Shown here piece by piece: positions 3,647-49,975 of a stretch of 64,000 nt of DNA. Within the stretch, counting starts at the first letter, position 1. Each line of letters begins with the position of its first letter. The notes under the pieces are model-generated. The model worked only from the letters and a program-made list of their open reading frames with translations, made no database searches and was not told the origin of the DNA. A program made the translations under genes and the position numbers. Location of the stretch: the IMG/VR virus record IMGVR_UViG_2926068284_000002, positions 20,745-84,744 of that record. The stretch is one strand, 5' to 3'. Source of the DNA: a virus. Lineage: Duplodnaviria > Caudoviricetes.

Positions 3647-3895
3647 ATGACCCCCTACGCCGAGCTCGCCCAGCACCTCGACACTGCCCTCGCCGACGAC
3701 CCCACCCCGCAAGCCGCCGCACACCGCGCAGCCATCACCACCTGTACCCAGCTCCTCGACATGGGCCACCCCGAAGACGACCCGCTCGTCACCAGGTACC
3801 GGGAAGGCATCCTCGGCGGCATCCTCACGCCCATCGCCACCCTCTACGCCCACACCCCCGGCTTCCCCACCGCATGGCGGCACGCCGGTAGCTGA
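3647..3895 (+). CDS. Hypothetical protein
   Basis: aggag RBS; 82-aa ORF. Confidence 0.6.
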   Translation: MTPYAELAQHLDTALADDPTPQAAAHRAAITTCTQLLDMGHPEDDPLVTRYREGILGGILTPIATLYAHTPGFPTAWRHAGS

Positions 3896-3979
3896 GGCCA
3901 CACCAAAGCCGCGCCACCTGGCGACCGCCGAGGAGGAAACCGCTGACAGGGCGGCCGAGGCTGCGGTAAATATGCGCCC

Positions 3980-4597
3980 ATGCCTGTCACCGCACTAGAT
4001 GCAGCCACAGATGTCCTTACCCGAGCCCGTCAGCTCATGGCTCTGGATGCTGCGCCCACCCCGGCCGCTACTCGCGAAGACATCAGACGTGCCGCCCTAG
4101 CCCTCGGCGTCGCAGCCGTCGACACATACATGCACTGGGCTATTCGCAAAGTCGCCTTCGCTGACCCTCTGCCCAAGGAACTGGCCAGACTTGAAGTCCC
4201 CTTTGGGGCCATGCTGGACATCGCGAACGCCTCGGTCGAGGCGCGCAAGCAGGGCATAGCCCACCGCCCTCAGGTGAAGGCCCGAAACGTCATGAACGAG
4301 AAGCTCCTCACCATGACGTTTCAGTCCCCAGCCGGCGTCGAGCGAGGCCTGCAGATGCTGGGTATCTCGAAGTGCTGGGCAAAGCTGTCCGCCGCCATCC
4401 AGCCTCAGGCCACAACAACGGACCTGAAGGCACGGCTGGGGCAGATCGCGCACCGCCGCAACAAGATCGTGCACGAGGGAGATTTGGCCCGCCAAGACAG
4501 GCCCCGGGAAGTTAAACGGGAGACCATCAGTGCAAAGGAAGTCCACGACGACCTCAACTGGATTGAATCTTTCATTAAGGCCCTGGCCTCCCTTTGA
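3980..4597 (+). CDS. HEPN-domain protein (RiboL-PSP-HEPN-like)
   Basis: R-x4-H motif RNKIVH near the C-terminus of a helical protein; visibly lower GC than neighbours. Confidence 0.7.
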   Translation: MPVTALDAATDVLTRARQLMALDAAPTPAATREDIRRAALALGVAAVDTYMHWAIRKVAFADPLPKELARLEVPFGAMLDIANASVEARKQGIAHRPQVKARNVMNEKLLTMTFQSPAGVERGLQMLGISKCWAKLSAAIQPQATTTDLKARLGQIAHRRNKIVHEGDLARQDRPREVKRETISAKEVHDDLNWIESFIKALASL

Positions 4598-4601
4598 AAC
4601 C

Positions 4602-4640
4602 CAAAGCGCCCCTGCCCGCCGTAGCGGGAGGGGCGCTTCG
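4602..4640. terminator. Bidirectional terminator-like hairpin
   Basis: aagcgcccct...aggggcgctt between convergent genes. Confidence 0.65.
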
Positions 4641-4650
4641 CGTTGGCGTG

Positions 4651-5058
4651 TCAGCGGGGGAGCGCCTCGTCGAGGTACTCCTGCACGGGCCCGAACAGCC
4701 CATACGGCACGTACTCCGGGATCTCCCCGTGCCCGATCCACGCCACTGCGGCAATCTCCTCAGCGTCCCCGACGACCGCATCCCCGGAGATCAGCTCGCA
4801 CGCCACATACGACATCGGCACCCCAGTCTGCGGGTGCACCCGGTCACCCAGGACCCGGGCAGCCTTAACCTCCAGGCCGACCTCCTCCGCCGTCTCCCGC
4901 ACCGCAGCCTGCTCCGGGGACTCCCCTGCCTCGATGCCGCCGCCAGGGAACGCCCACAGCAGCTTCCCCTCCCGCTGCCGCCGCCGGATCATCAGCACCC
5001 TCCCGCCGTCGACGATGATCGCCGTGGAGACGGGGGGCTGGACACTCTGCTCGGTCAC
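4651..5058 (-). CDS. Nudix hydrolase (pSAM2 Pif/MutT-like)
   Basis: Canonical Nudix box GGGIEAGESPEQAAVRETAEEVGL. Confidence 0.9.
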   Translation of the reverse strand: MTEQSVQPPVSTAIIVDGGRVLMIRRRQREGKLLWAFPGGGIEAGESPEQAAVRETAEEVGLEVKAARVLGDRVHPQTGVPMSYVACELISGDAVVGDAEEIAAVAWIGHGEIPEYVPYGLFGPVQEYLDEALPR

Positions 5059-5693
5059 GCTGCCTCCAAGGCACTCAAGATCGGCGGGTAGATGTTCTCG
5101 GCCGGGATGAAACGGGTCAGGCTGGCGAGGGGCACCCAGGCGACGTCCATGTTCTCGACCGCGTCCAGGTTGCTGGCCTCGCCGGCGAGATAGTCGCAGA
5201 GGACGTAGCTGGCCAGCACCCGGGTTTTCGGGTGGACCCGTGTGCCGAGCTCCTCGCGGACCGCGACGTGCACCCCGGTCTCCGCGTGGGTTTCCTGCAC
5301 CGCTACCGACGCCGCGGCGGCGCCCGGCTTGCACATCCCGGCCGGGAACTGCCAGGACAGGTTGTCGTCGCCGCGCCGGCACACCAGGAGCACCTCGGTG
5401 CCGCGCAGCACCACGGCGATAGCAACCCGGAGCGCCTGCGTCTCCGCCTCGGCAGGCTCCTCGGGCGGGCGGGACAGGAGGGTGAAGCGGCGTCTCACGT
5501 GTTCGTTGGCCCTCTCGTAGGTGGTGTCGAGGGCCTGCTGCATCTCGGTGCGCGGCACGATCTCCGGGTTCCTGTGCCAGCCGGCAACGGTGCGAACCGC
5601 CACCCCGAGCTTCGCGGCGAAGCCCTCGTTCGTCATGCGGAGCGCGGCCTGCAAGGCGCAGGCGGTGCGGCCGGTCCACGTGGTGACGTTCAC
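5055..5693 (-). CDS. XRE-HTH fused to degenerate Nudix domain
   Basis: N-terminal HTH (MTNEGFAAKLGVAVRTVAGWH); Nudix-like FPAGMCKPG...AVQETHAETGV. Confidence 0.8.
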   Translation of the reverse strand: MNVTTWTGRTACALQAALRMTNEGFAAKLGVAVRTVAGWHRNPEIVPRTEMQQALDTTYERANEHVRRRFTLLSRPPEEPAEAETQALRVAIAVVLRGTEVLLVCRRGDDNLSWQFPAGMCKPGAAAASVAVQETHAETGVHVAVREELGTRVHPKTRVLASYVLCDYLAGEASNLDAVENMDVAWVPLASLTRFIPAENIYPPILSALEAA

Positions 5694-5845
5694 TATCCGG
5701 CTCCCCGGGTCGTGGCGCTGCGGTTCTGCATCACTGCTGCACTGCTACTGCACTAGGGGCCGATCCGGTGCACTGCCACCGCACTGGAAGCTCATCGCCC
5801 GGTAAGCCGGCCGCCAGTTGACTTGAGGGCATGGAGATCAGCCGT

Positions 5846-6085
5846 TCACCTGGAAGCCCGCGAGATCTGCTCCGCTCTGGAGCCGGTCACCCCAAGCAGG
5901 TCGCCGACCTGCTGCCAGGAGCGCCCTTCGTGGAGGCTCCGGGCGATCTCGGCCTTCACGTCCTTGAGGTCGCCGCCGAGTTGCAGTTCGAGCTTTTTGA
6001 CCGCCTGGTACCGCTCGACGTCGTCGCTGATCTCTTTGATGGCTGCGATCAGCGATGTCGCGCGCGCTTCCAGGGTGTCGGTCAT
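5846..6085 (-). CDS. Small HTH repressor (Kor-like position)
   Basis: C-terminal SWQQVGDLLGVTGSRAEQI HTH; divergent from the transfer operon. Confidence 0.7.
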   Translation of the reverse strand: MTDTLEARATSLIAAIKEISDDVERYQAVKKLELQLGGDLKDVKAEIARSLHEGRSWQQVGDLLGVTGSRAEQISRASR

Positions 6086-6116
6086 GGAATGAGAGTAGGG
6101 GCCAATCCGGGCCACT

Positions 6117-6184
6117 TCAAGCAGTTGCTTGACGCGGGCCGGATGGGGGCCTACTGTCTAACTCAGCACTCCAAGCACCGCTTG
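6117..6184 (+). promoter_or_regulatory. Transfer-operon promoter with two palindromic operators
   Basis: TTGACG (6129-6134)-17 nt-TACTGT (6152-6157); TCAAGCA-GT-TGCTTGA at 6117-6132 and CAAGC-ACC-GCTTG at 6172-6184. Confidence 0.75.
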
Positions 6185-6308
6185 AAGCGCCGTTCACTCC
6201 TACCGGGCATGCCCGCGAACGGCGCGACAACAAAAACGGGCCGGACGCCAGCGACTCCTACATCGCGCAGCATCCGACCCTCACCGCCAAGGTCCTAAGG
6301 AGACCCCG

Positions 6309-6488
6309 ATGGCTGTGCAGAACTCTACCGTCGAGCGTCCGACGCTCCACGACCTGTCCCCGGCTGACATCGCCGCCCATGAGGCTGCGTCTTATGTCCG
6401 CCGGGCGGTGACCCCGACCCGCGAGTCGGTCACCCTCCCCGCCGAGACCCCGGCTCGCCGCCGGCTGATCGCTCTCCGGCGTCTCTGA
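6309..6488 (+). CDS. Small hypothetical protein (59 aa, not in ORF track)
   Basis: aaggag RBS; MAVQNSTVERPTL...; TGATG coupling to the next ORF. Confidence 0.55.
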   Translation: MAVQNSTVERPTLHDLSPADIAAHEAASYVRRAVTPTRESVTLPAETPARRRLIALRRL

Positions 6489-7122: not shown

Positions 7123-7287
7123 ATGGCCCGCAAGATCACCGAGTCCTTCATTCCCTGTGCCCCCGGCCCCCGGTTCACCGTCGATGGCGCCCACCCGTGG
7201 GACCACCACTCCACCCGGGAGGACGCCGAGAAGCAGGCCGCCGAACTCGACGCGAAGGACGCCGCCGAGGCGGAGGGGCAGAGCTGA
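7123..7287 (+). CDS. Small hypothetical protein
   Basis: aggaga RBS; coupled to the next gene. Confidence 0.55.
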   Translation: MARKITESFIPCAPGPRFTVDGAHPWDHHSTREDAEKQAAELDAKDAAEAEGQS

Positions 7288-7667
7288 TGCCCGCCGTCAC
7301 GATCGTGTCGTTCGGGTTTCTGCACGGTGACCCGCCGCCCGCGCACCTGACCGTTGACCTGAGGCAGCACTTCCGGGACCCGCACGTGTCCCCGGGACTG
7401 CGGCACATGACCGCCCTGGACGAGCCGGTGCAGCAGGCGGTGCTCGGCACCCCCGGCATCACCGGGCTCGTCACGGCGGTCGCCGCAGCGGTGGACGCGT
7501 TCACCGCGGGCCCCAGCGCCGGGCCGGTGACTGTGGCCGATGGGTGTGCGGGCGGCCGGCACAGGGCCCCCGTTTTCGCCCAGGCGCTCGCTGACCAGCT
7601 GACTGCTGCCGGGCACACCGTCACCGTTCAGCACCGCGACCTGCACCGACCCGTCGTCAACCGATAG
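7287..7667 (+). CDS. RapZ C-terminal domain-like protein
   Basis: IVSFGFLHG...DLRQHFRDP...GCAGGRHRA...HRDL motifs. Confidence 0.85.
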   Translation: MPAVTIVSFGFLHGDPPPAHLTVDLRQHFRDPHVSPGLRHMTALDEPVQQAVLGTPGITGLVTAVAAAVDAFTAGPSAGPVTVADGCAGGRHRAPVFAQALADQLTAAGHTVTVQHRDLHRPVVNR

Positions 7668-9292: not shown

Positions 9293-9865
9293 ATGAGCAC
9301 TGCTGCCGACCAGGGATGGGACTGGGCTGGACCCCAGACGAAGCAGCCCACCATCCCGCCCAGACCCCGCACCGAACCCACCAACGGGCCGGGCGTGAAC
9401 AACTCGACGAACCGCACCGGAGGTGCGTTCGCCCCGTCCCTCGGCTTCGCCGTCAACAAGACCACCGTCGTCAACGGCGGCCCCGGCGGAACCCGTGGCC
9501 CGGGGCGCGGTGCCGGCGGGAAGGTCCCCGGCTCCGACTTCATGTCCAACGAGGACATCAGGGCGTTCTGCGAGTACCTGCGGAAGGACTCCCGGAACCG
9601 GGCCACCGAGCGGGCCATGGACGCCGACCACCTCGAAGCCGTCCTCCGCACCATCCCCGACGCCAGCGGCAACCTTCACGGATCCCGCGCCCGCGCCCGG
9701 CGGGTGGCCCGCTGGCTGAGGAAGGTTGCCGCCGCCGAGAAGGCCATCCAGAAGTACTCGGCGATGATCTACGGCACGTTCGAGCGGGAGTACGAGTCCG
9801 ACCTGCGGAAGGTCGGCAAGGGCCGCCACCAGCCCCCGCGCGCCACCAAGTTCGGCTGGCGCTAA
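9293..9865 (+). CDS. traA: Streptomyces plasmid transfer protein TraA-like
   Basis: Gly-rich linker then FMSNEDIRAFCE...ARARRVARWL...FEREY; directly upstream of traB. Confidence 0.65.
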   Translation: MSTAADQGWDWAGPQTKQPTIPPRPRTEPTNGPGVNNSTNRTGGAFAPSLGFAVNKTTVVNGGPGGTRGPGRGAGGKVPGSDFMSNEDIRAFCEYLRKDSRNRATERAMDADHLEAVLRTIPDASGNLHGSRARARRVARWLRKVAAAEKAIQKYSAMIYGTFEREYESDLRKVGKGRHQPPRATKFGWR

Positions 9866-10150: not shown

Positions 10151-12148
10151 GTGGCTGACAGCCAGAAGGCCGACCTGTGGAAGGCCATCAAGCACCCCCG
10201 CATGAGGCCCTGGCTGACAGTCGCCGCCGAGGTCCCCGCCACCTTCGCCTCCCACCACTACTGGGGCGACTCCGTACCCGCCGCGATCGGCCTCACCGTC
10301 GCCGCAGGTGTACTCACCGCCGCCACCTGGTGGGCAGGCGAGGGGACCCGGCCCGGCCGGCGTATCCACGCCACCCTGTCCACCGGCCTCGGCACCTCCT
10401 ACCTCGTCGTCGGCACCGCCGTCGGCCCGTTCGACCCGGCGCTCGCCTCCACACTCGTCATCGGCGGCGCAGTCGCCGCCGGGTCGTGGAACATCCGCCA
10501 AGCGTTGCGCGTCAACGTGGACCCGCAGAAGGAAGGCGGCAACGCCGAGACCGGTGTCCTCGTCAAGGCCATCGGCGACGCCAAGGTCGCCCTCCGCGGC
10601 AAGCCGAAGGTCGAACCCAACAAGGTCACCGTCCCGCTTCAGCTGTCCGCCGGGCAGGTCACCTCCGACGACCTCGGCAACCGCATCAAGCACATCGCCG
10701 GAGAACTCGGCGTGTCCCCGACCAGCATCCGTGTCATCCCCGACCCCGACGACGCCGCCCGAGCCACCCTCGTCGTCGTCCCCAAGGACGAACTCAAGCA
10801 GCCCACCACCTGGCCCGGCCCATCCGCTCCGGGCGGCAGCATCACCGAGCCCGTCATCCCCGGCATCTACGAGGACGGCGAGGAGGCCCAGCTGTGGTTC
10901 CCCGCCGGACCCGGCCGGAACGCCACCCACTTCCTCACCGCGGGCATGAACGGCTCGGGGAAGTCCGCAGGTCAGTCCGTCGCCATCACCGAAGCCCTGA
11001 CCCGCCGCGACGCCATCGTGTGGGCCGTCGACCCCAGCAAGGGAATGCAGACGTTCGCTCCGTTCCTCCCTCACCTGGACTGGGTCGAGATGACCGAAGC
11101 TGGCGGCAACGAGATGATCGACGCCCTGTCGCAGGTCATCACCGCCCGCGCCAACGAGCTCGGCCGTCACGGCTTCAAGAACTGGACTCCGCAGGCCCAC
11201 GACCAGCTCGGCATGCCGTACATGATCGTGTGGATCGAGGAGGCTGCGAAGTTCTTCCGCAACGGCACCGAGATGGAAGGCTTGGTCATGGAGGCCCGGT
11301 CCGCCGGGATCAGCGTCATCATCAGCCTCCAGCGTCCCTCCGCCACCAGCATGCCGACCGACGTTCGTGAGCAGCTCGGCGGTGTCCTCTGCTTCGGCGT
11401 CAAGGGCTCCACCACCGCCGACATGGCCCTCCCCGACGACGTCCGCGACGCCGGCGCCCGACCCGAAGCGTGGGAGAACCGCAAGCCCGGCTACGCCTAC
11501 CTCGTCGCCCCCGGCGTCGACGAAGACCGCTACGCCACCCCCCTGCGCACCTACCTCATCGACGACGACCAGATCACCGGGGCCCTCTCCATCCTGCCCC
11601 GCACCCCCATCGACCCCGTCACCGCCGCAGCAGCCGGTGACGCCTACGCCAACCGCACCCGATACGACGCTGACACCCCTCTGACCAGCAGTGACAGCCC
11701 ACGACAGGAGACCGTCACCATGACAAAGGACGACGCCCAGGCCGCCGAGAAGGCGCTACTGGAGAAGCAAGTCGACCGCGAGATCGACGCCATGGTCGGC
11801 GACGACCCCGACGACGACGGGTACGTGCCCGACGTCGACGCCGACCAGGAGATCGCCCCACCGGCCGAGGTGTGGTCGTTCGGGCCGCCCCAAGCCCCCG
11901 TCGAGGAGAAGACGCCGGAGGCCGGCATGGAGGCCCTGATGGCGATGCTCGCCGAGTTCCGGGCGGAGGAGCGGGAGTTCATCGGCCCGAAGGACTTCGG
12001 CCCGTTCGGGAAGGGCCAGCGCATCGGAAGGTCCCGTTCCTGGGTGTCAGGAGCCCTCGGAGACCTGTCAGATGGCGGGATTCACCTGTCAGAAACCGAC
12101 GATCCGGGGGTCTACAGGCTGCTGTACCCGGAGCTGGCGGAGGTCTGA
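10151..12148 (+). CDS. traB: TraB FtsK/SpoIIIE-family conjugative DNA translocase
   Basis: N-terminal TM helices, Walker A GMNGSGKS, Walker B IVWIEEA, ARSAGIS...LQRP, C-terminal winged HTH. Confidence 0.92.
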   Translation: MADSQKADLWKAIKHPRMRPWLTVAAEVPATFASHHYWGDSVPAAIGLTVAAGVLTAATWWAGEGTRPGRRIHATLSTGLGTSYLVVGTAVGPFDPALASTLVIGGAVAAGSWNIRQALRVNVDPQKEGGNAETGVLVKAIGDAKVALRGKPKVEPNKVTVPLQLSAGQVTSDDLGNRIKHIAGELGVSPTSIRVIPDPDDAARATLVVVPKDELKQPTTWPGPSAPGGSITEPVIPGIYEDGEEAQLWFPAGPGRNATHFLTAGMNGSGKSAGQSVAITEALTRRDAIVWAVDPSKGMQTFAPFLPHLDWVEMTEAGGNEMIDALSQVITARANELGRHGFKNWTPQAHDQLGMPYMIVWIEEAAKFFRNGTEMEGLVMEARSAGISVIISLQRPSATSMPTDVREQLGGVLCFGVKGSTTADMALPDDVRDAGARPEAWENRKPGYAYLVAPGVDEDRYATPLRTYLIDDDQITGALSILPRTPIDPVTAAAAGDAYANRTRYDADTPLTSSDSPRQETVTMTKDDAQAAEKALLEKQVDREIDAMVGDDPDDDGYVPDVDADQEIAPPAEVWSFGPPQAPVEEKTPEAGMEALMAMLAEFRAEEREFIGPKDFGPFGKGQRIGRSRSWVSGALGDLSDGGIHLSETDDPGVYRLLYPELAEV

Positions 12149-12326
12149 CACCTCGGGGTGTCAGCGCTGACACCCCCTCTGACCTGCGGTGACACCGTTC
12201 TGACACGGTTCTGACACCCCGAAGGCGTCAGAACCGGTGTCAGAAGCCCTCCGGAGGGCCGATCTCTATAGGTCATGCGCGTGCGCGCGCGTGACCGCCC
12301 TCCGCTGACACCCACCCACTGACACA
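12145..12326. repeat. clt-like locus: array of TraB recognition sequences (CTGACACC)
   Basis: Direct copies at 12145, 12167, 12189, 12200, 12211, 12305, 12319; inverted copies at 12157, 12224, 12236; immediately downstream of traB. Confidence 0.85.
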
Positions 12327-12338
12327 GGAGACAAACCC

Positions 12339-12770
12339 GTGAAAAGCCCCGAACCGGACGGAGGTCGGGCCAAGGTACTCGCCGCAGCACTCCGCACCTG
12401 GACCACCGTCGACAACGACCTCGAACCCCCCGTCGCACGCCTCGAAATCCGCTACCCACCCCACTGGGCGTTCGCCTCCACCAACCCCATCACCGCAAGG
12501 CAACAGAAGCGGCTCCTGGCGTTCCTCCGCGATGACCTCGCTGAGAACCGGCCCGGGTACTCCACCCCCGAGCGTGCCGCCGCGATCATCCACGGGCTCA
12601 TCACCGAACATGCCGCCGCCGGCCGTACCCGCATCACCACCGCGGACCTTGCCGAAGCCGCTCCCCGGATCGGCCGGTCCCGTACCTGGATCGCCGCCCA
12701 CGTCACCGACCTCATCGACGGTGGTGTGCTTCGCGAGACCAGGCGCCCCGACACCTTCCGCATCAACTAG
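12339..12770 (+). CDS. Protein with C-terminal wHTH paralogous to the TraB C-terminus
   Basis: RIGRSRTWIAAHVTDLIDGGVLRETRRPDTFRI aligns to TraB RIGRSRSWVSGALGDLSDGGIHLSETDDPGVYRL. Confidence 0.8.
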   Translation: MKSPEPDGGRAKVLAAALRTWTTVDNDLEPPVARLEIRYPPHWAFASTNPITARQQKRLLAFLRDDLAENRPGYSTPERAAAIIHGLITEHAAAGRTRITTADLAEAAPRIGRSRTWIAAHVTDLIDGGVLRETRRPDTFRIN

Positions 12771-12780
12771 GAGCCGTTCA

Positions 12781-13260
12781 ATGCAGCTGCCCGAGCAGCC
12801 CGTCGCCGGGCAGCCCGACCCCACCATCCAGCAGAACGCCACCCGGTTCCTCGCCGCCGTGGACGAGGCCCTCCTCGCCGGCCAGGCCACGTCGTACCGC
12901 GACACCACCCCGCTGCCCGCAGTGGGCGCTACACCGCCTGTGCCGCAGCCGGGCCCGCCCCCGATGTCGCAGTGGGCGATCGACGCCAGCGGGGTCCTCA
13001 AGGCCGTGTCTGTGGCGTCCCTCCCGATCGGCGGGGCCCTGTGGATCGTCGGCCAGGTCGACCCGCTGACCTTGGGCATCATCCTCGGGTCGCCGGCCGC
13101 CGTCGCCTTGGCCGTGGCCCGGCTGGTCGCGAAGGTCAAGGACGCCAACCAGGCTGCCCAGCCCGTCGTGCAGAACTACTACGGCACCGTCCACCACGAC
13201 GAGCGCACCGTCACCAGCACTACGCGCGGTGTCATCGCGAAGACGCAGAACCGAAACTGA
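12781..13260 (+). CDS. Spd-like two-TM membrane protein
   Basis: Pro-rich N-terminus, two TM segments, tail VVQNYYGTVHHD. Confidence 0.65.
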   Translation: MQLPEQPVAGQPDPTIQQNATRFLAAVDEALLAGQATSYRDTTPLPAVGATPPVPQPGPPPMSQWAIDASGVLKAVSVASLPIGGALWIVGQVDPLTLGIILGSPAAVALAVARLVAKVKDANQAAQPVVQNYYGTVHHDERTVTSTTRGVIAKTQNRN

Positions 13261-13401
13261 GCGCCTCGGACTTCAGTCCGAGTAGCCAGCAGGCGTCACA
13301 CCAGCCACGAACTTCGACTCGCCACCACACGCCCCCGCCCGCCCGGACTCCATCGAGCCGAGCGCGGGTAAGGCGACCAATACCAGATGAGAGGACCCAC
13401 C

Positions 13402-14779: not shown

Positions 14780-15087
14780 GCGGGGCTCCCAGGCTGATCG
14801 TGCGGGTAGTCGTTGTGCTCGACGTAGGGGGCGGCGAGGAGCCGCAGCTGGTACTCGGCGGTCCGGCCAGCCTCCCCGCCCGCGCCCAGGTGCGGGATCA
14901 CGGTGTCCTCCAGCAGTGTCAGGTGCACCTCTGCGGTGGCAACGGAGAACCGGGCGTGCTTCTCGGCGTCCTCGGGGTCGACACCGAACCGTTCGGGATC
15001 CCGGGTCACTGTGCCGCTCGCGAACCGGGCCTTCTCCAGTTCCTCGGCGAACCGGGTGCGGAGGAAGGCCGCCAAGGCGTCGGTCAT
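14776..15087 (-). CDS. Short DUF6221-like paralog
   Basis: MTDALAAFLRTRFAEE...LLAAPYVEHNDY. Confidence 0.65.
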   Translation of the reverse strand: MTDALAAFLRTRFAEELEKARFASGTVTRDPERFGVDPEDAEKHARFSVATAEVHLTLLEDTVIPHLGAGGEAGRTAEYQLRLLAAPYVEHNDYPHDQPGSPA

Positions 15088-15608
15088 GAGGGCTCCTGGT
15101 TCTGGCGCTCGCGGAGTTCGTCAAGCAGCGACGGGTTGACGATGCGGACGATGGTCGCGATGTCCCGGGCCTCGACAGCAGGCCACAGGATGTCCCGGGC
15201 CGCCCGGTACTTCGCAGCCAGCCGGGTCCGCTGCTCCTCGGACAGCATGACCGACCGGTCGGGGTGGCAGTTGTGCGCGTTGTCCGCGACCTTGAGAAGG
15301 ACCGCGTCGCGGCCGTGCCCGGTGATGCGGGCCACCTTCTCCTCGTAGGGCACCCCGCGCTCGTTCGTGACCGCCTCCACCAGCGCGACCACATGATCCG
15401 GGGCCCCCGCCTCGCGCAGGCCATCGGCGGTCCAGTCGGTGTCCTCGATGGCATCGTGCAGCAGCCCGGCCATCACCAGGTGATCACCGAACGGGGCGAG
15501 CCCGGCCGCGACCGCGCGAACGTGCTCGATGTACGGGATCCCGATCTTGTCGAACTGGCCGGCGTGCGCAGCGGACGCCAGGGCGTCGACCTCGGCGACG
15601 GTCTTCAC
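15084..15608 (-). CDS. HD-domain hydrolase of SpoT/Mesh1 (small alarmone hydrolase) type
   Basis: AHAGQFDK.G.PYIEH...GLLHDAIEDT...KVADNAHN. Confidence 0.85.
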   Translation of the reverse strand: MKTVAEVDALASAAHAGQFDKIGIPYIEHVRAVAAGLAPFGDHLVMAGLLHDAIEDTDWTADGLREAGAPDHVVALVEAVTNERGVPYEEKVARITGHGRDAVLLKVADNAHNCHPDRSVMLSEEQRTRLAAKYRAARDILWPAVEARDIATIVRIVNPSLLDELRERQNQEPS

Positions 15609-15847
15609 GCTTGCTCCTCCTCGGTCTGCTTGGCGGCTCGCTCCCTGTCGATGCGGTCGGCAATCTTGCGTGCCCACTCGCGGCTGTACGGCGTGTGCTT
15701 GGCGATCGTCATAAGCGGCACGCCGGCCGCTCTGGCGTCCGCAACTAGCTCGTCGAGGTTCGTCCGCGCCCTCTCGTGAGCGGAAGTGGCGCGGTCGAGG
15801 CGGCGGAGCCAGGAAGCTTCGACGTCGGGTTCGGGGCGTGGCGTCAT
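15605..15847 (-). CDS. Small HTH repressor
   Basis: ARAAGVPLMTIAKHTPYSREWARKI. Confidence 0.7.
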   Translation of the reverse strand: MTPRPEPDVEASWLRRLDRATSAHERARTNLDELVADARAAGVPLMTIAKHTPYSREWARKIADRIDRERAAKQTEEEQA

Positions 15848-39529: not shown

Positions 39530-41305
39530 ATGCGACACCTCTTCGGGGGCACCACCTCGGACTACGCCATGCAGCAGGTCGGCAACCAGCTCCTGCTCCG
39601 CCCCGGCGCCACCGGCCAGGTGTGGAACGCGGTAGTCGGCGGCACCCAGCTCACCGACCTGACCGACACCAGCGGTGTGCCGATCACCAGCGTAGTCGCC
39701 GCAGCCGACGGGTCCGTGTCCTTCTACGGACCTGAGGACGCCACCGAATGCTTCATCGACTTCGGGTTCGGCCGCCGCTACACGCTGATCGCCTCCGACA
39801 TCGCGAGCACTGTCTCCGCCCGCCTCAACAGCCTGGTGGCGACGGCCGCCGACGACGCGGCGGCAAAGGCGACCGCAGCACAGGCGGCGGCCACTGCGGC
39901 TGCCGCGTCGTCGGCGGCAGCCCTGTACCTGCCGAACGCCGTCCAGACCATCGACACGCTCCTCAGTGGGGCAACACCGTCATCCCCCGTGTACTTCGGG
40001 CACCGTGGTGGGGGCATGGTGCGCCCGGAGCACACCCTGGCTGGATACCGGGCTACCGCGGCGATGCGGTACCCGCTGGAGATCTCCGTCAACGTCGACG
40101 CGTCCGGGGAGTTGTGGTGCTTGCATGACCCGACTGTGGACCGGACGACGAACCGGACGGGGTTGCTGAGTTCGTTCACGACGGAGGAGGTTGCCCAGCA
40201 GATCCAGACGAACGCCCGGCCGCTGCTGGGGGCCGGGTGGGCGGAGCAGCGGCTTGTGCCGCTACGGCAGGTGCTGGACGAGTTCCTGGGGCGGGTGCCG
40301 ATCCTGCTGGAGCCGAAGGCCAACGACGCGGTGGTGCCCACCCAGCAGCTGCTGGACGCCTCATACCCGCATGCCCCGCGCAGCGTGATTTGGAAGGCGC
40401 ACATCGGGACGCTGAGCCTGCCGTGGGCTAAGGCGCGCGGGTACCGGACGTGGGTGTACCTGGACTCGGGCACCACCGACGCGACGATGGACGCCAAGGA
40501 CTCCCTGGTGGACTACTGGGGTGTGAACACCACGTTCTCGGATGCGCGGATCACCCAGGTGAAGGACCGGGGGAAGCCCGTGTTCGCGTGGGCGGTGTAC
40601 CGGCGCTCCCAGGTTGCCCGCCTGACTGGTCTGGGTGTGGTCGGGATGATGTCGTCGGACCCCCGGTACGTGTCGACGTCGGCCCCTCAGCGGACCGCGT
40701 CCCGGTGGGATCTGCAGGTCAAGGAGTCGGGGTGCACGCCGACGATCGACTACGACGAGACCTACGCTTTGCAGTTCGCCCCGTCTCCGGATGTGGGCTG
40801 GGTTTCGGTCGCGGCGGTGCCGTTCCAGTCGGTGGGGTTGGGCACGTACTGCCCGATCGCGGTGGGGGCGGGCGGGTACCGGATCAGCTTCGACATGAAG
40901 TTCAAGGTGCTGCCGTCGTCGACACTGCACGGGGGGATCTACTTCGGGAAGCAGTCGGACGATCCGTACCGGTTCTCCCAGTCGAACGCCACGGGCGGGT
41001 ACCACTTGGTGATGCGGGCGAACGGCCAGATGCAGCTGAACAAGCACACCGCTGGGGTGACGTCGGGAACGACGATGGGCTCAGTGATCGCAACGACAGC
41101 ACCGACAGCTGACGGGGTGATGAGCTTCCAGGTAGACGTGACCCCCACAACGGTGGAGGTTCGGCGCACGGACGGCACGGGGTGGACGACGGGGGCCTTG
41201 GCGGATACGACGTACCGGGGCGGCTACTTCGGGCTGTCGAATGGGTCGATCACGGATGTGGCGACCCGCCCGTACTGGCGGAACCTGGTGGTCACCCAGC
41301 TGTGA
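39530..41305 (+). CDS. Tail fibre/spike with glycerophosphodiester phosphodiesterase (GDPD) domain, copy 1
   Basis: GHRGG...PEHT...CLHDPTVDRTT...GVVGMMSSDP followed by a beta-sandwich C-terminus. Confidence 0.85.
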   Translation: MRHLFGGTTSDYAMQQVGNQLLLRPGATGQVWNAVVGGTQLTDLTDTSGVPITSVVAAADGSVSFYGPEDATECFIDFGFGRRYTLIASDIASTVSARLNSLVATAADDAAAKATAAQAAATAAAASSAAALYLPNAVQTIDTLLSGATPSSPVYFGHRGGGMVRPEHTLAGYRATAAMRYPLEISVNVDASGELWCLHDPTVDRTTNRTGLLSSFTTEEVAQQIQTNARPLLGAGWAEQRLVPLRQVLDEFLGRVPILLEPKANDAVVPTQQLLDASYPHAPRSVIWKAHIGTLSLPWAKARGYRTWVYLDSGTTDATMDAKDSLVDYWGVNTTFSDARITQVKDRGKPVFAWAVYRRSQVARLTGLGVVGMMSSDPRYVSTSAPQRTASRWDLQVKESGCTPTIDYDETYALQFAPSPDVGWVSVAAVPFQSVGLGTYCPIAVGAGGYRISFDMKFKVLPSSTLHGGIYFGKQSDDPYRFSQSNATGGYHLVMRANGQMQLNKHTAGVTSGTTMGSVIATTAPTADGVMSFQVDVTPTTVEVRRTDGTGWTTGALADTTYRGGYFGLSNGSITDVATRPYWRNLVVTQL

Positions 41306-47496: not shown

Positions 47497-47858
47497 GCAC
47501 CACCACGGAGATCGCGGCACTCGTCGCCGCGGCCGTACCCCTCCTTGGCGGCGGTGGCTACTTCGTCGCCCGCGCAACAGTGCGAGCAGCCCGGGTCACC
47601 GCCCAAGCAGACGAGGCCATCGCCCGCCTCAACGCCGCCCCGCAGGCCAAGGCCCAGGACTTCGCCGTACTGCAAGCAACAGTCGCGAGGGTCGACGAGG
47701 AGAACGGGCAACTGCGCGGCAAGCAGGCTCGACTCGAAGCGCTCCTGCGCGCCTTCTCCTGGACTGTCGACCGGTGGGCCGGCCAAATGCACCGGGCCAA
47801 CATCGACCCCGAACCCGTCCACCCCCTCGTCGACGAGTACAACCGGACTGGAGTCTGA
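47493..47858 (+). CDS. TM plus coiled-coil lysis-cassette protein
   Basis: N-terminal TM segment, coiled coil. Confidence 0.65.
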   Translation: MSTTTEIAALVAAAVPLLGGGGYFVARATVRAARVTAQADEAIARLNAAPQAKAQDFAVLQATVARVDEENGQLRGKQARLEALLRAFSWTVDRWAGQMHRANIDPEPVHPLVDEYNRTGV

Positions 47859-47860
47859 CC

Positions 47861-49975
47861 ATGCCGTTCCCTACGGGCGTCCCGTCCGTCCCCGTCCGCT
47901 ACAGCATCACCTCCCCGGCCGGCGGCGGCCCCGGCGAAGGCACCCTCCAGCTCATGCCGACCGTCCCCGCCATCCGTATCCCCGGGCAGGAGGGCGTGTT
48001 CACCGGCGGTGGTTCGTACCGATTCGTCGACGGCGAGCTTGTCGACGGCGAAGGGGAGCGGGTGCGCCTCCTCCCCACCAACGTTGACGGCGCGAACCCC
48101 GCGGCGTGGGCGTGGCTCGGCATCGAATCCGTGAACGGCGCCCAGCCCCGCCACTTCTACTTCGCCCTGGACGCCGACGCGGACGAGGTCGACCTCGGGG
48201 CCGTCCAGCAGCTCGCCCCGGACCTGGCCCAGTACCTCGCCGTACCAGGGGAGTCCGCCTACGACGCATGGCAGCGCGCAGGGAACGACGGTGACGAGGC
48301 CGACTTCCTCGCGAGCCTGATCGGCCCGCCCGGTGACATTGCCGCGGCCAACGACTACACCGACGAGCAACTCGGCCTCGTCGTCGCCGCCGAGGTGCAG
48401 CGCGCGGATGCCGCCTACGACCCCGCCGGCGCCGCCACGGCAGCCCAGGCCGCAGCCGTCAGCGCCGCGGCAGCAGACGCCGCCGCGAAGGCGAACACCG
48501 CGCGGGACGCCGCCATTGCCGCAGCCTCCTCCGACGCCGCCTCCAAGGCTGGCGCCGCTCAGAGTGCCGCCGTGCTGGCGGCAGCCGCTGCCGCCGCCGG
48601 GCTGTACCTCCCCAAGGCGATACTGACCGTCGACAGCTTCATGGGTCAGCCCGGCACGAAGGTCTTCGGCCACCGGGGAGCTGGGATGGTCTGCCCGGAG
48701 CACACCGAAGCCGCCTACGACTACGCCATCGCCCACGGCATCCAGGCCATGGAGCTCAGCGTCAACATCGACTCCGAGGGGCAGCTGTGGTGCCTCCACG
48801 ACCTCACCCTGGACCGGACCACGTACAACACGGGGGCCCTCAACACCTACCCATCGACCGGGGTCGCCCAACGCATCCTGACGAACGGCCGGGTGATGCT
48901 CGGACAGGGGTGGACGGACCAGCCGATGGTGCCGCTCCGACGCATGCTCGACAAGTACCTCGGGAAGGTCGTTCTCTTCCTGGAGCCCAAGGGCAACGAC
49001 GCCGTCGTCCCCCTCCAGAACCTCCTGTCCACGTCGTACCCGCACGCCCCGGCCAGCGTCATCTGGAAAGCCCACGTCGGCACGTCCTTCGTATGGCCCA
49101 AGCAGCAGGGGTACCGCACCTGGTGCTACGTCGATGACGGCTCCAGCAACGCGGTCCTCGACGGCAAGGACTCCCTGGTGGACTACTGGGGGGTCTCCAC
49201 GTCCATGTCGTCCGCCCGTCGCAAAGAGATCGTCGCCCGCGGCAAGCCCGTCTTCAGCTGGCCCGTCTACCGCCGATCCCAGCGGGCCGCCCTGGAAGCC
49301 GACGGAGTCGTCGGGCTCATGTCATCGGACCCGGTGTACGTGCGCGGCACCACCGCCCAAGCCACCGCATCCCGGTGGGACCAGCAGGTCAAGGAATCCG
49401 GCGGCACCCCGCAGACCGACTACAACGTCGACGCGGCGTTGAAGTTCAGCGAGTCCGACGGGTGGGTGTCCATCAACCGGGCGCGCGGCACCTACGGGCT
49501 CGGCCGGTACTGCCCGATCGCCCCCGGGGCCGGCGGGTACCGCATCACGGTCGAGATGAAGTACGACCAGATCAACACCAGTGACCTCAACGTCCACGGC
49601 GGCCTGTACTTCGCGAAGGGCAGCGACGACCCCTACGAGTTCAACACGATCAACCCCAGCGCCGGCTACCACCTCATCCTCCGGCACAACGGGATCCTCC
49701 GTCTCTACCGGCACGTCACCACGCAGACCGGCGGGATCCAACTTGGCGCTGCCGACATTCCCACCGACGCCCCCGTCGCCGGACAGTCCATGGCCATCCA
49801 GATCGACGTCACCCCCACCACGATCGAAGCCCGCCGCCTCGGCAACGCCGCCTGGACCACCGGCCCCATCAACGACACCACCAACCGCGGCGGGTACTTC
49901 GGACTGTCCAACGGCAGCATCAGCGACACGGCGGTGCGCCCGTTCTGGCGGAACCTCGTCATCACACAGCTCTGA
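47861..49975 (+). CDS. GDPD-domain tail fibre/spike, copy 2
   Basis: GHRGAG...PEHT...CLHDLTLDRTT; clearly paralogous to 39530-41305 with a different N-terminus. Confidence 0.85.
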   Translation: MPFPTGVPSVPVRYSITSPAGGGPGEGTLQLMPTVPAIRIPGQEGVFTGGGSYRFVDGELVDGEGERVRLLPTNVDGANPAAWAWLGIESVNGAQPRHFYFALDADADEVDLGAVQQLAPDLAQYLAVPGESAYDAWQRAGNDGDEADFLASLIGPPGDIAAANDYTDEQLGLVVAAEVQRADAAYDPAGAATAAQAAAVSAAAADAAAKANTARDAAIAAASSDAASKAGAAQSAAVLAAAAAAAGLYLPKAILTVDSFMGQPGTKVFGHRGAGMVCPEHTEAAYDYAIAHGIQAMELSVNIDSEGQLWCLHDLTLDRTTYNTGALNTYPSTGVAQRILTNGRVMLGQGWTDQPMVPLRRMLDKYLGKVVLFLEPKGNDAVVPLQNLLSTSYPHAPASVIWKAHVGTSFVWPKQQGYRTWCYVDDGSSNAVLDGKDSLVDYWGVSTSMSSARRKEIVARGKPVFSWPVYRRSQRAALEADGVVGLMSSDPVYVRGTTAQATASRWDQQVKESGGTPQTDYNVDAALKFSESDGWVSINRARGTYGLGRYCPIAPGAGGYRITVEMKYDQINTSDLNVHGGLYFAKGSDDPYEFNTINPSAGYHLILRHNGILRLYRHVTTQTGGIQLGAADIPTDAPVAGQSMAIQIDVTPTTIEARRLGNAAWTTGPINDTTNRGGYFGLSNGSISDTAVRPFWRNLVITQL

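Follow-up and report, generated by a model that had tools for sequence, protein, structure and literature searches.

A free TraB-type winged helix encoded beside traB and its repeat array in a phage-plasmid of the pCQ3/pCQ4 kind

The transfer region of the element

The window is the whole stretch of DNA that was analyzed, 64,000 bases in length, and it comprises bases 20745-84744 of a provirus record of 84,744 bases that is rated 96% complete. Virion genes were identified for the portal, the large terminase, the major head protein, a Dit-like protein, and tail fibre proteins, and the same window also contained a Streptomyces-type conjugation module with traA and traB. The nearest annotated records were two circular plasmids, pCQ4 (NC_019307.1, Streptomyces sp. 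W75, 84.8 kb, with terminase and portal genes) and NC_013449.1 (a pCQ3-type plasmid of Streptomyces sp. W9). Both showed about 76% identity to the window across traA-traB and the small gene that follows traB. Based on the virion genes, the tra module, and these plasmid relatives, the element is a phage-plasmid of the pCQ3/pCQ4 kind. The features of the transfer region are as follows.

9293-9865, plus strand: traA, encoding the plasmid transfer protein TraA (NF041213, 108.9 bits, cut-off 80; syntenic in 9 of 10 loci)
10151-12148, plus strand: traB, encoding an FtsK-like dsDNA transfer pump of 665 aa (NF041214, 830.4 bits, cut-off 800, match over residues 9-664)
11912-12121, plus strand: traB segment for the C-terminal winged helix of TraB (residues 588-657), to which the small protein is homologous
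12043-12326, no strand assigned: clt-like array of (C)TGACAC(C) words in both orientations, starting inside the 3' end of traB and ending at the ribosome site of the small gene
12247-12260, no strand assigned: perfect palindrome of 14 bases (hairpin), preceded by the distal repeats and followed by the conserved block, partly conserved in a 12-locus alignment
12267-12295, no strand assigned: conserved non-coding block, made up of TAGGTCA and then alternating GC/GT; it contains a near-palindrome of 24 bases at 12272-12295
12305-12311 and 12319-12325, plus strand: two proximal CTGACAC copies directly before the ribosome site
12339-12770, plus strand: small gene of 143 aa, an N-terminal domain without known relative plus a TraB-type winged helix
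12339-12557, plus strand: N-terminal domain (residues 1-73), helix-strand-strand-helix according to the models
12558-12767, plus strand: C-terminal winged helix (residues 74-143), basic, pI 10.4, assigned by homology and fold
12781-13260, plus strand: next gene, a 159-aa membrane protein, spd-like by position (phrog_19266 at 1.8e-58)

The small gene starts with GTG, and an AGGAGA ribosome site was located at 12326-12331, seven bases before this start codon. It opens an operon with the membrane protein gene at 12781-13260, and the translation signals of the two genes overlap, the ribosome site of the second gene covering the stop codon of the first. A homologue of the membrane protein was present 3' of the small gene in 4 of 10 loci.

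Homology, fold, and conservation of the small protein

The small protein was compared with TraB at the sequence and profile levels. BLASTP aligned its residues 76-142 with residues 588-657 of TraB, with 25 identities in 70 positions (36%) and 42.7 bits; the E value of 1e-9 is the value for that pair. The NCBIfam model of TraB, NF041214, matched residues 74-142 at profile positions 564-632 of 639 (E 1.7e-9). A profile-profile comparison of 42 family members with 15 TraBs gave a probability of 98.6% and an E value of 1.3e-15 over 70 columns; the C-terminal part alone aligned with TraB, and the N-terminal half did not. The phage family phrog_24831, which holds TraB-like proteins, matched the C-terminal part as well. 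The initial annotation had proposed that the C-terminus aligns with that of TraB in a protein without an ATPase or transmembrane region, and both points were confirmed. Pfam returned no family at E <= 1 on the small protein, the FtsK/SpoIIIE-type ATPase motor included. No membrane segment was detected, the maximum 19-residue hydropathy being 0.51, compared to 2.01 for the 12781-13260 product with its hydrophobic segments.

The feature shared with TraB was the C-terminal winged helix with an R-S-R-x-W recognition helix. The small protein scored 36.7 bits with NF041214 against the full-length cut-off of 800. It is a true relative of the TraB head but, as it lacks three of the four features that define a TraB, not a TraB. 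The term "paralog", used earlier for this protein, is right as far as homology to the TraB head goes; at 36% identity it applies in a loose sense only, to an old copy. In a profile search over 1.84 billion representatives, the small protein matched TraBs of other lineages at least as closely as its own.

Structure prediction had been named as a check, and it was carried out. An AlphaFold model from 42 sequences (pLDDT 86) contained two domains. The modelled N-terminal domain consists of a helix at residues 6-24, strands at 33-39 and 44-51, and a helix at 53-69; the modelled C-terminal domain consists of helix 77-93, a short strand, helices 101-111 and 115-127, and a two-stranded wing. Compared with solved structures, residues 74-143 gave a best Z of 9.3 (rmsd 2.1, 65 residues aligned). 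The best ten matches reached Z 8.1-9.3 over 61-73 aligned residues, with an rmsd of 1.6-2.7 Å in nine and 5.1 Å in one. The winged-helix matches included 4esj_A, 6l0o_A, and 1cf7_A. As modelled, the C-terminal domain has the winged-helix fold and superposes on solved winged helices. The whole model gave nothing at E <= 0.001 with Foldseek against the PDB, and the best matches there were winged helices of the CRP, MarR, and IclR types at E >= 0.03. No FtsK gamma chain was among the matches listed in the PDB sequence search, the Foldseek search, or the structure search with residues 74-143.

The N-terminal domain, folded alone, reached a pLDDT of 82 in one model and 56-70 in the other four. Against all 48,161 chains its best Z was 3.9, with none at Z >= 5. 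The N-terminal half had no match in Pfam, PHROG, or NCBIfam, and a feature-based Atlas search gave no usable match. The domain therefore has no detectable relative or known fold. A profile of residues 6-75 matched residues 160-227 of a triosephosphate isomerase (4g1k) at E 0.0017, a P-x-W-A motif being part of the matched stretch. This match was judged to be probably due to chance, because a barrel piece of 70 residues cannot fold alone and no structural match supported it.

A word-indexed search returned 72 homologues of 126-147 aa with 55-97% identity, and every named one was a Streptomyces "hypothetical protein". An exhaustive profile search yielded 8 clusters at 50% identity that contain both domains, down to about 38% identity. 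At E <= 0.001, the search over 1.84 billion representatives gave 31 proteins. These were the 8 family clusters, TraBs and TraB fragments, other short head-bearing proteins, and five large proteins (1,495-4,395 aa) with several matched stretches each. Family members lack cysteines and share a conserved helix-strand-strand-helix domain of their own. The best-conserved stretch of the family is the recognition helix plus the wing, and R110, G112, R113, R115, W117, I118, A119, E133, T134, and R135 were invariant in 42 family sequences.

A decaying, functionless remnant of a partial traB duplication, which the initial annotation had considered in the form of a non-conserved copy, would fit two observations: only the last 70 residues are common with TraB, and the small gene is split in one locus (L027). 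However, the 72 homologues keep a constant length down to 55% identity, and the 8 clusters extend to about 38%. All 8 pairs compared gave dN/dS values (Nei-Gojobori) of 0.17-0.49, and neither half reached 1 in any pair; the small gene's start codon and ribosome site aligned across loci, and the two-domain model reached a pLDDT of 86. A remnant is therefore highly improbable; the small gene is a working gene under purifying selection.

The co-occurrence with traB was confirmed. In each of the 22 loci (10 plus 12 fetched), the gene immediately before it in the same orientation matched TraB; this set includes some elements more than once (L013 and L025 look like L002, L014 equals L021, L015 equals L010, and L022 and L029 equal L007). 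The gap between traB and the small gene was 160-250 bases, with the exception of L002, L023, and L025, where about 0.85-1 kb is inserted. The TraBs adjoining family members were 59-93% identical to the TraB of the window. In L005 (3820-5806), traB is split by a frame change, and in L027 both traB (3814-5807) and the small gene (6001-6427) are split; these are decaying copies or sequencing errors.

The distribution was further analyzed in 401 evenly sampled genomes of Streptomyces species, and a TraB match at E <= 1e-30 was present in 62 of them. The small protein was found in 3 of the 62 TraB-bearing genomes and in none of the 339 TraB-less genomes. Since 59 of the 62 lack it, the small gene is an accessory gene of one TraB clade. 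In 72,556 plasmid records, tblastn detected the small protein in two, NC_013449.1 and pCQ4. No match to it was found by tblastn in phage records, and a related-locus search of viral contigs with the family alignment A3 returned nothing.

The repeat array and the recognition helix

The word CTGACAC had 16 matches in the 64 kb compared to 10.9 expected, with eight within 12145-12325 and a ninth at 12044. TGACACC had 17 matches, 8 of them within 12043-12312. In the whole 84,744-base record, 7 of the 12 matches of CTGACACC fell within the 270-base stretch 12043-12312, and no second CTGACACC cluster was found in that record. The two CTGACAC repeats that had been noted upstream of the ribosome site are indeed present and are the last of this dense cluster. 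In the report on plasmid pWTY27, the TGACACC repeats of its clt, the same word CTGACACC, were footprinted by the TraB homologue of that plasmid (TraA) (PMC3583192). The clt of pWTY27 is described there as needed for transfer and as beginning inside the tra gene, as the array does here (PMC3583192).

Between traB and the small gene, the CTGACACC word was kept in 11 of 11 regions examined, and its flanks drift. In all 12 aligned loci, the elements of the gap stand in one fixed order, namely words, a GC hairpin, the conserved block, two or three words, and the ribosome site, and the two or three proximal word copies stand at the same place in most loci. The transcript of 12140-12275 is predicted to be strongly structured (-72.8 kcal/mol, z -5.4) through inverted word copies and the 12247-12260 palindrome, which pairs in the predicted fold. 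This hairpin is a possible end of the traB transcript, though it has no T-run. Outside the repeats, the columns of the 12267-12295 block are the most conserved across all 12 loci. The block is a candidate promoter or operator for the operon that follows, and such a signal would be common to TraB elements. A scan for sigma-70 promoter and terminator consensus over 11900-13400 gave nothing, and Rfam gave nothing below E 0.67.

Loci of another TraB lineage (L016, L017, L018, and L020) contained CTGACGC-type words, a similar block, further words, and a ribosome site, followed by a different next gene; the genomes holding them had no match to the small protein. In the relatives of the L023 type, an inserted gene takes the place of the proximal repeats. 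Because the proximal repeats occur in TraB elements without the small gene and are replaced in the L023 type, autoregulation through them is not required. The proximal repeats are not special to the small gene.

The small protein could instead be an ordinary winged-helix regulator that reads an operator unrelated to the TraB repeats, such as the near-palindrome at 12272-12295. The block lies just upstream of the small gene and is conserved in all 12 loci, many small winged-helix proteins are dimeric repressors, and the fold matches IclR, Fur, and MarR types. However, a similar block stands behind traB in the 4 loci whose genomes have no small-protein match, so its reader should be common to all of these lineages. 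Furthermore, the nearest relatives of the head are TraB heads, not regulator families. We regard this alternative as quite improbable.

The motif R-I-G-R-S-R-x-W is common to the small protein and its own TraB. In all 15 aligned TraBs, including those with 27-40% identity, R627, R629, W631, and G643 were invariant and S628 was nearly so. R-S-R-x-W is thus a constant of the TraB family and says nothing either way on specificity. The initial annotation had pointed to altered helix residues; these are no sign of changed specificity, since the motif is family-wide and the helix positions that do differ prove no altered specificity. In 14 elements, the TraB helix varied at several positions with the word unchanged, and the small-protein helix was almost constant. 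No co-variation of the small-protein helix with the TraB helix or the word was visible in these 14 elements, as the word is identical in all of them.

Both arginines of R-S-R-x-W are replaced in a distant branch of the family (L021, P0075, and P0077-P0079). Despite this, the repeat words in L021 are unchanged and stand in the same places. The protein of this branch reads DNA differently or does not read these words. Members of the branch (L021, 5950-6417; P0077-P0079), at about 38-40% identity, also gained a proline-rich tail of about 15 residues.

The small-protein head has a pI of 10.4 and the wing E-T-R-R-P, compared to a pI of 4.6 and the wing E-T-D-D-P in the TraB head. A basic head is expected where DNA is bound without the avidity of a hexamer. 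It has also to be considered that the head mimics a protein contact and binds the partners of the TraB head, such as Spd membrane proteins or TraB itself, thereby linking or uncoupling the spreading apparatus. In two-hybrid assays reported for pSVH1, the C-terminal recognition domain of TraB interacted with Spd198 and SpdB2 (PMC4447253). A membrane protein gene with overlapping signals follows directly 3' of the small gene, and the distant branch keeps the gene though two helix arginines are lost. However, main-branch proteins are best conserved in the helix and wing, and their domain has become strongly basic, which fits DNA contact. A role in protein contact thus appears unlikely.

Possible roles and other free TraB heads

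FtsK gamma is a winged helix that ends a hexameric dsDNA pump and reads 8-base chromosomal polarity words. By analogy, the small protein may be viewed as a free version of the plasmid counterpart of gamma. The TraB head is described as related to the FtsK gamma domain (PMC4447253), and the C-terminal winged helix of Streptomyces TraB, for example that of pSVH1, reads the 8-base repeats of clt (Vogelmann et al. 2011, as given in PMC3583192 and PMC4447253). The small protein is like the TraB head in its homologous domain, its place in the element, and the adjacent repeat word, which is the footprinted site of pWTY27. It differs from TraB as a soluble protein of 143 aa without a membrane part or an FtsK-type motor. 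Moreover, its N-terminal domain is unrelated, its head is basic rather than acidic, and the identity is 36%.

The small protein was also compared with SpdA and SpdA2, which are described as small (117-163 aa) DNA-binding proteins of conjugative Streptomyces elements, sometimes encoded next to traB and with a mild or unclear phenotype (Thoma et al. 2014, PMC4170104). SpdA was proposed in that report to link plasmid DNA with the transfer apparatus (PMC4170104). As described there, these proteins resemble the small protein in size, setting, and proposed role. The conserved DNA-binding part of SpdA is N-terminal, comprises about 38-50 aa, and targets a 12-base palindrome, sps (PMC4170104), whereas the putative DNA-binding part of the small protein is C-terminal and TraB-type. 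The sps palindrome had 0 matches in the window with up to 1 mismatch. No protein named SpdA was returned by the family profile searches, in which most matches are unnamed. Transfer of pZL12 is cited as needing tra and two adjacent genes (in PMC3583192).

A stand-alone, soluble TraB-type winged helix next to traB and the repeat array, as the initial annotation had described it, is upheld by homology, fold, and conservation. The two-domain protein that carries it is conserved, had no name before, and falls within the known TraB-clt system. For this protein, we infer DNA binding, a target word, and an effect on transfer. Its most likely role would be that of a soluble reader of clt words that tunes its own operon and the access of TraB to the site, a reading drawn from sequence to which we give about an even chance. 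The winged helix descends from the TraB domain that reads the 8-base clt repeats, and the small protein would bind the (C)TGACACC words in the 190-base gap between traB and the small gene, including the two leader copies. Occupancy of these words would set the expression of the operon of the small gene and the spd-like membrane protein. The small protein would further modulate the engagement of the element's DNA by TraB, acting as a brake or, alternatively, helping by marking or presenting clt. Through the N-terminal domain, it would associate with itself or contact the transfer machinery.

This soluble reader is favoured by the homology to the TraB head, the fold, the conservation of helix and wing, the basic pI, the purifying selection in both halves, the linkage to traB, the restriction to TraB-bearing genomes in the sample, the retention of the word in a cluster that is the only one in the record, and the footprinted word of pWTY27. 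It is weakened by the constancy of the motif, the loss of arginines in the distant branch, the proximal repeats that occur without the gene or give way to an inserted gene, the absence of the gene from 59 of 62 TraB-bearing genomes, and the lack of visible co-variation. Streptomyces conjugation relies on a single FtsK-like pump that reads short repeats, and a soluble copy of the reading head encoded at the transfer site provides a simple experimental handle on site control, especially in elements that are phages too. It also adds a protein family that has no Pfam entry and whose N-terminal domain reaches a Z of 3.9 at best against solved structures. If the small protein merely autoregulates its small operon, it would be a minor addition to plasmid biology.

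The small protein may also act against TraB, its head competing for clt during packaging or coating the word on rival elements and thereby blocking transfer. Its homology to the TraB head and its location at the repeats suit such a role, and the window, which is related to pCQ4, comes from a phage-plasmid and carries genes for portal, terminase, head, and tail. In addition, TGACACC is common to the unrelated plasmid pWTY27, so that cross-talk between elements is conceivable. However, the tra module with the small gene occurs on different backbones. Among 10 host genomes with the small gene, the portal of the window was detected in 1, and a phrog_2 terminase was detected in 2 of 5 carrier genomes; tail genes lie next door in L006, and the locus in L021 is flanked by a helicase and an integrase. 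The small gene therefore belongs to the tra module and not to the virion module, and it runs in the direction of the tra/spd operon, outside the lytic module. A link to the lytic cycle, which the initial annotation had suggested, is thus not indicated. A lytic-cycle switch or an inhibitor of rivals, as first put forward, is speculation; competition with TraB or inhibition of rival elements is a possible role, and as an explanation of the gene we consider it rather improbable.

Other free TraB heads were observed. In the close relative L023 (5165-6004; also in L002, L025, and L013), an inserted gene separates the conserved block from the small gene, and its stop codon overlaps the start of the latter. 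Its product combines a MUG113/T5orf172 domain (PF13455, 1.2e-8; PF10544, 2.3e-6) with a TraB-type winged helix that is 36% identical to its own TraB over 74 aa (E 2e-7). This gene may be a selfish, nuclease-like one aimed at clt. P0094 has the same build of T5orf172/MUG113 plus head. P0086, P0088, and P0095 are short head-only proteins, and P0097 and P0100 (243-244 aa) carry a TraB-type head at the N-terminus and a C-terminal part without an assigned family. These proteins are like the small protein in having a TraB-type head without the pump, right behind traB where the context is known; they differ from it in their N-terminal partners.

A search limited to the accessible literature yielded no description of a free TraB head. 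The free heads may together form a recurrent, undescribed class of clt-directed proteins that control the use of the transfer site. The reading domain would then have been captured several times by different partners, namely the novel alpha/beta domain of the small protein and, in sister elements, a T5orf172 nuclease-like domain inserted exactly at clt. In the family of the small protein, the soluble head would act as a gatekeeper and decide between pumping by TraB and packaging or replication of the double-stranded element, and it could exclude rival elements that share the TGACACC word. Taken jointly, these propositions have a low probability.

Several other genes were recorded in the window. 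The tra module is flanked by genes for a NUDIX protein (5055-5693, minus strand), a protein with a RapZ C-terminal domain (7197-7667, plus strand), and an HD-domain protein (15084-15677, minus strand). No match to a GntR-family regulator was found among the ten window ORFs scanned; pCQ4 has one upstream of its tra genes. Two paralogous tail-fibre genes are located at 39530-41305 and 47774-49975 of the window, and both match phrog_16641 and the phosphodiesterase-like phrog_17803.
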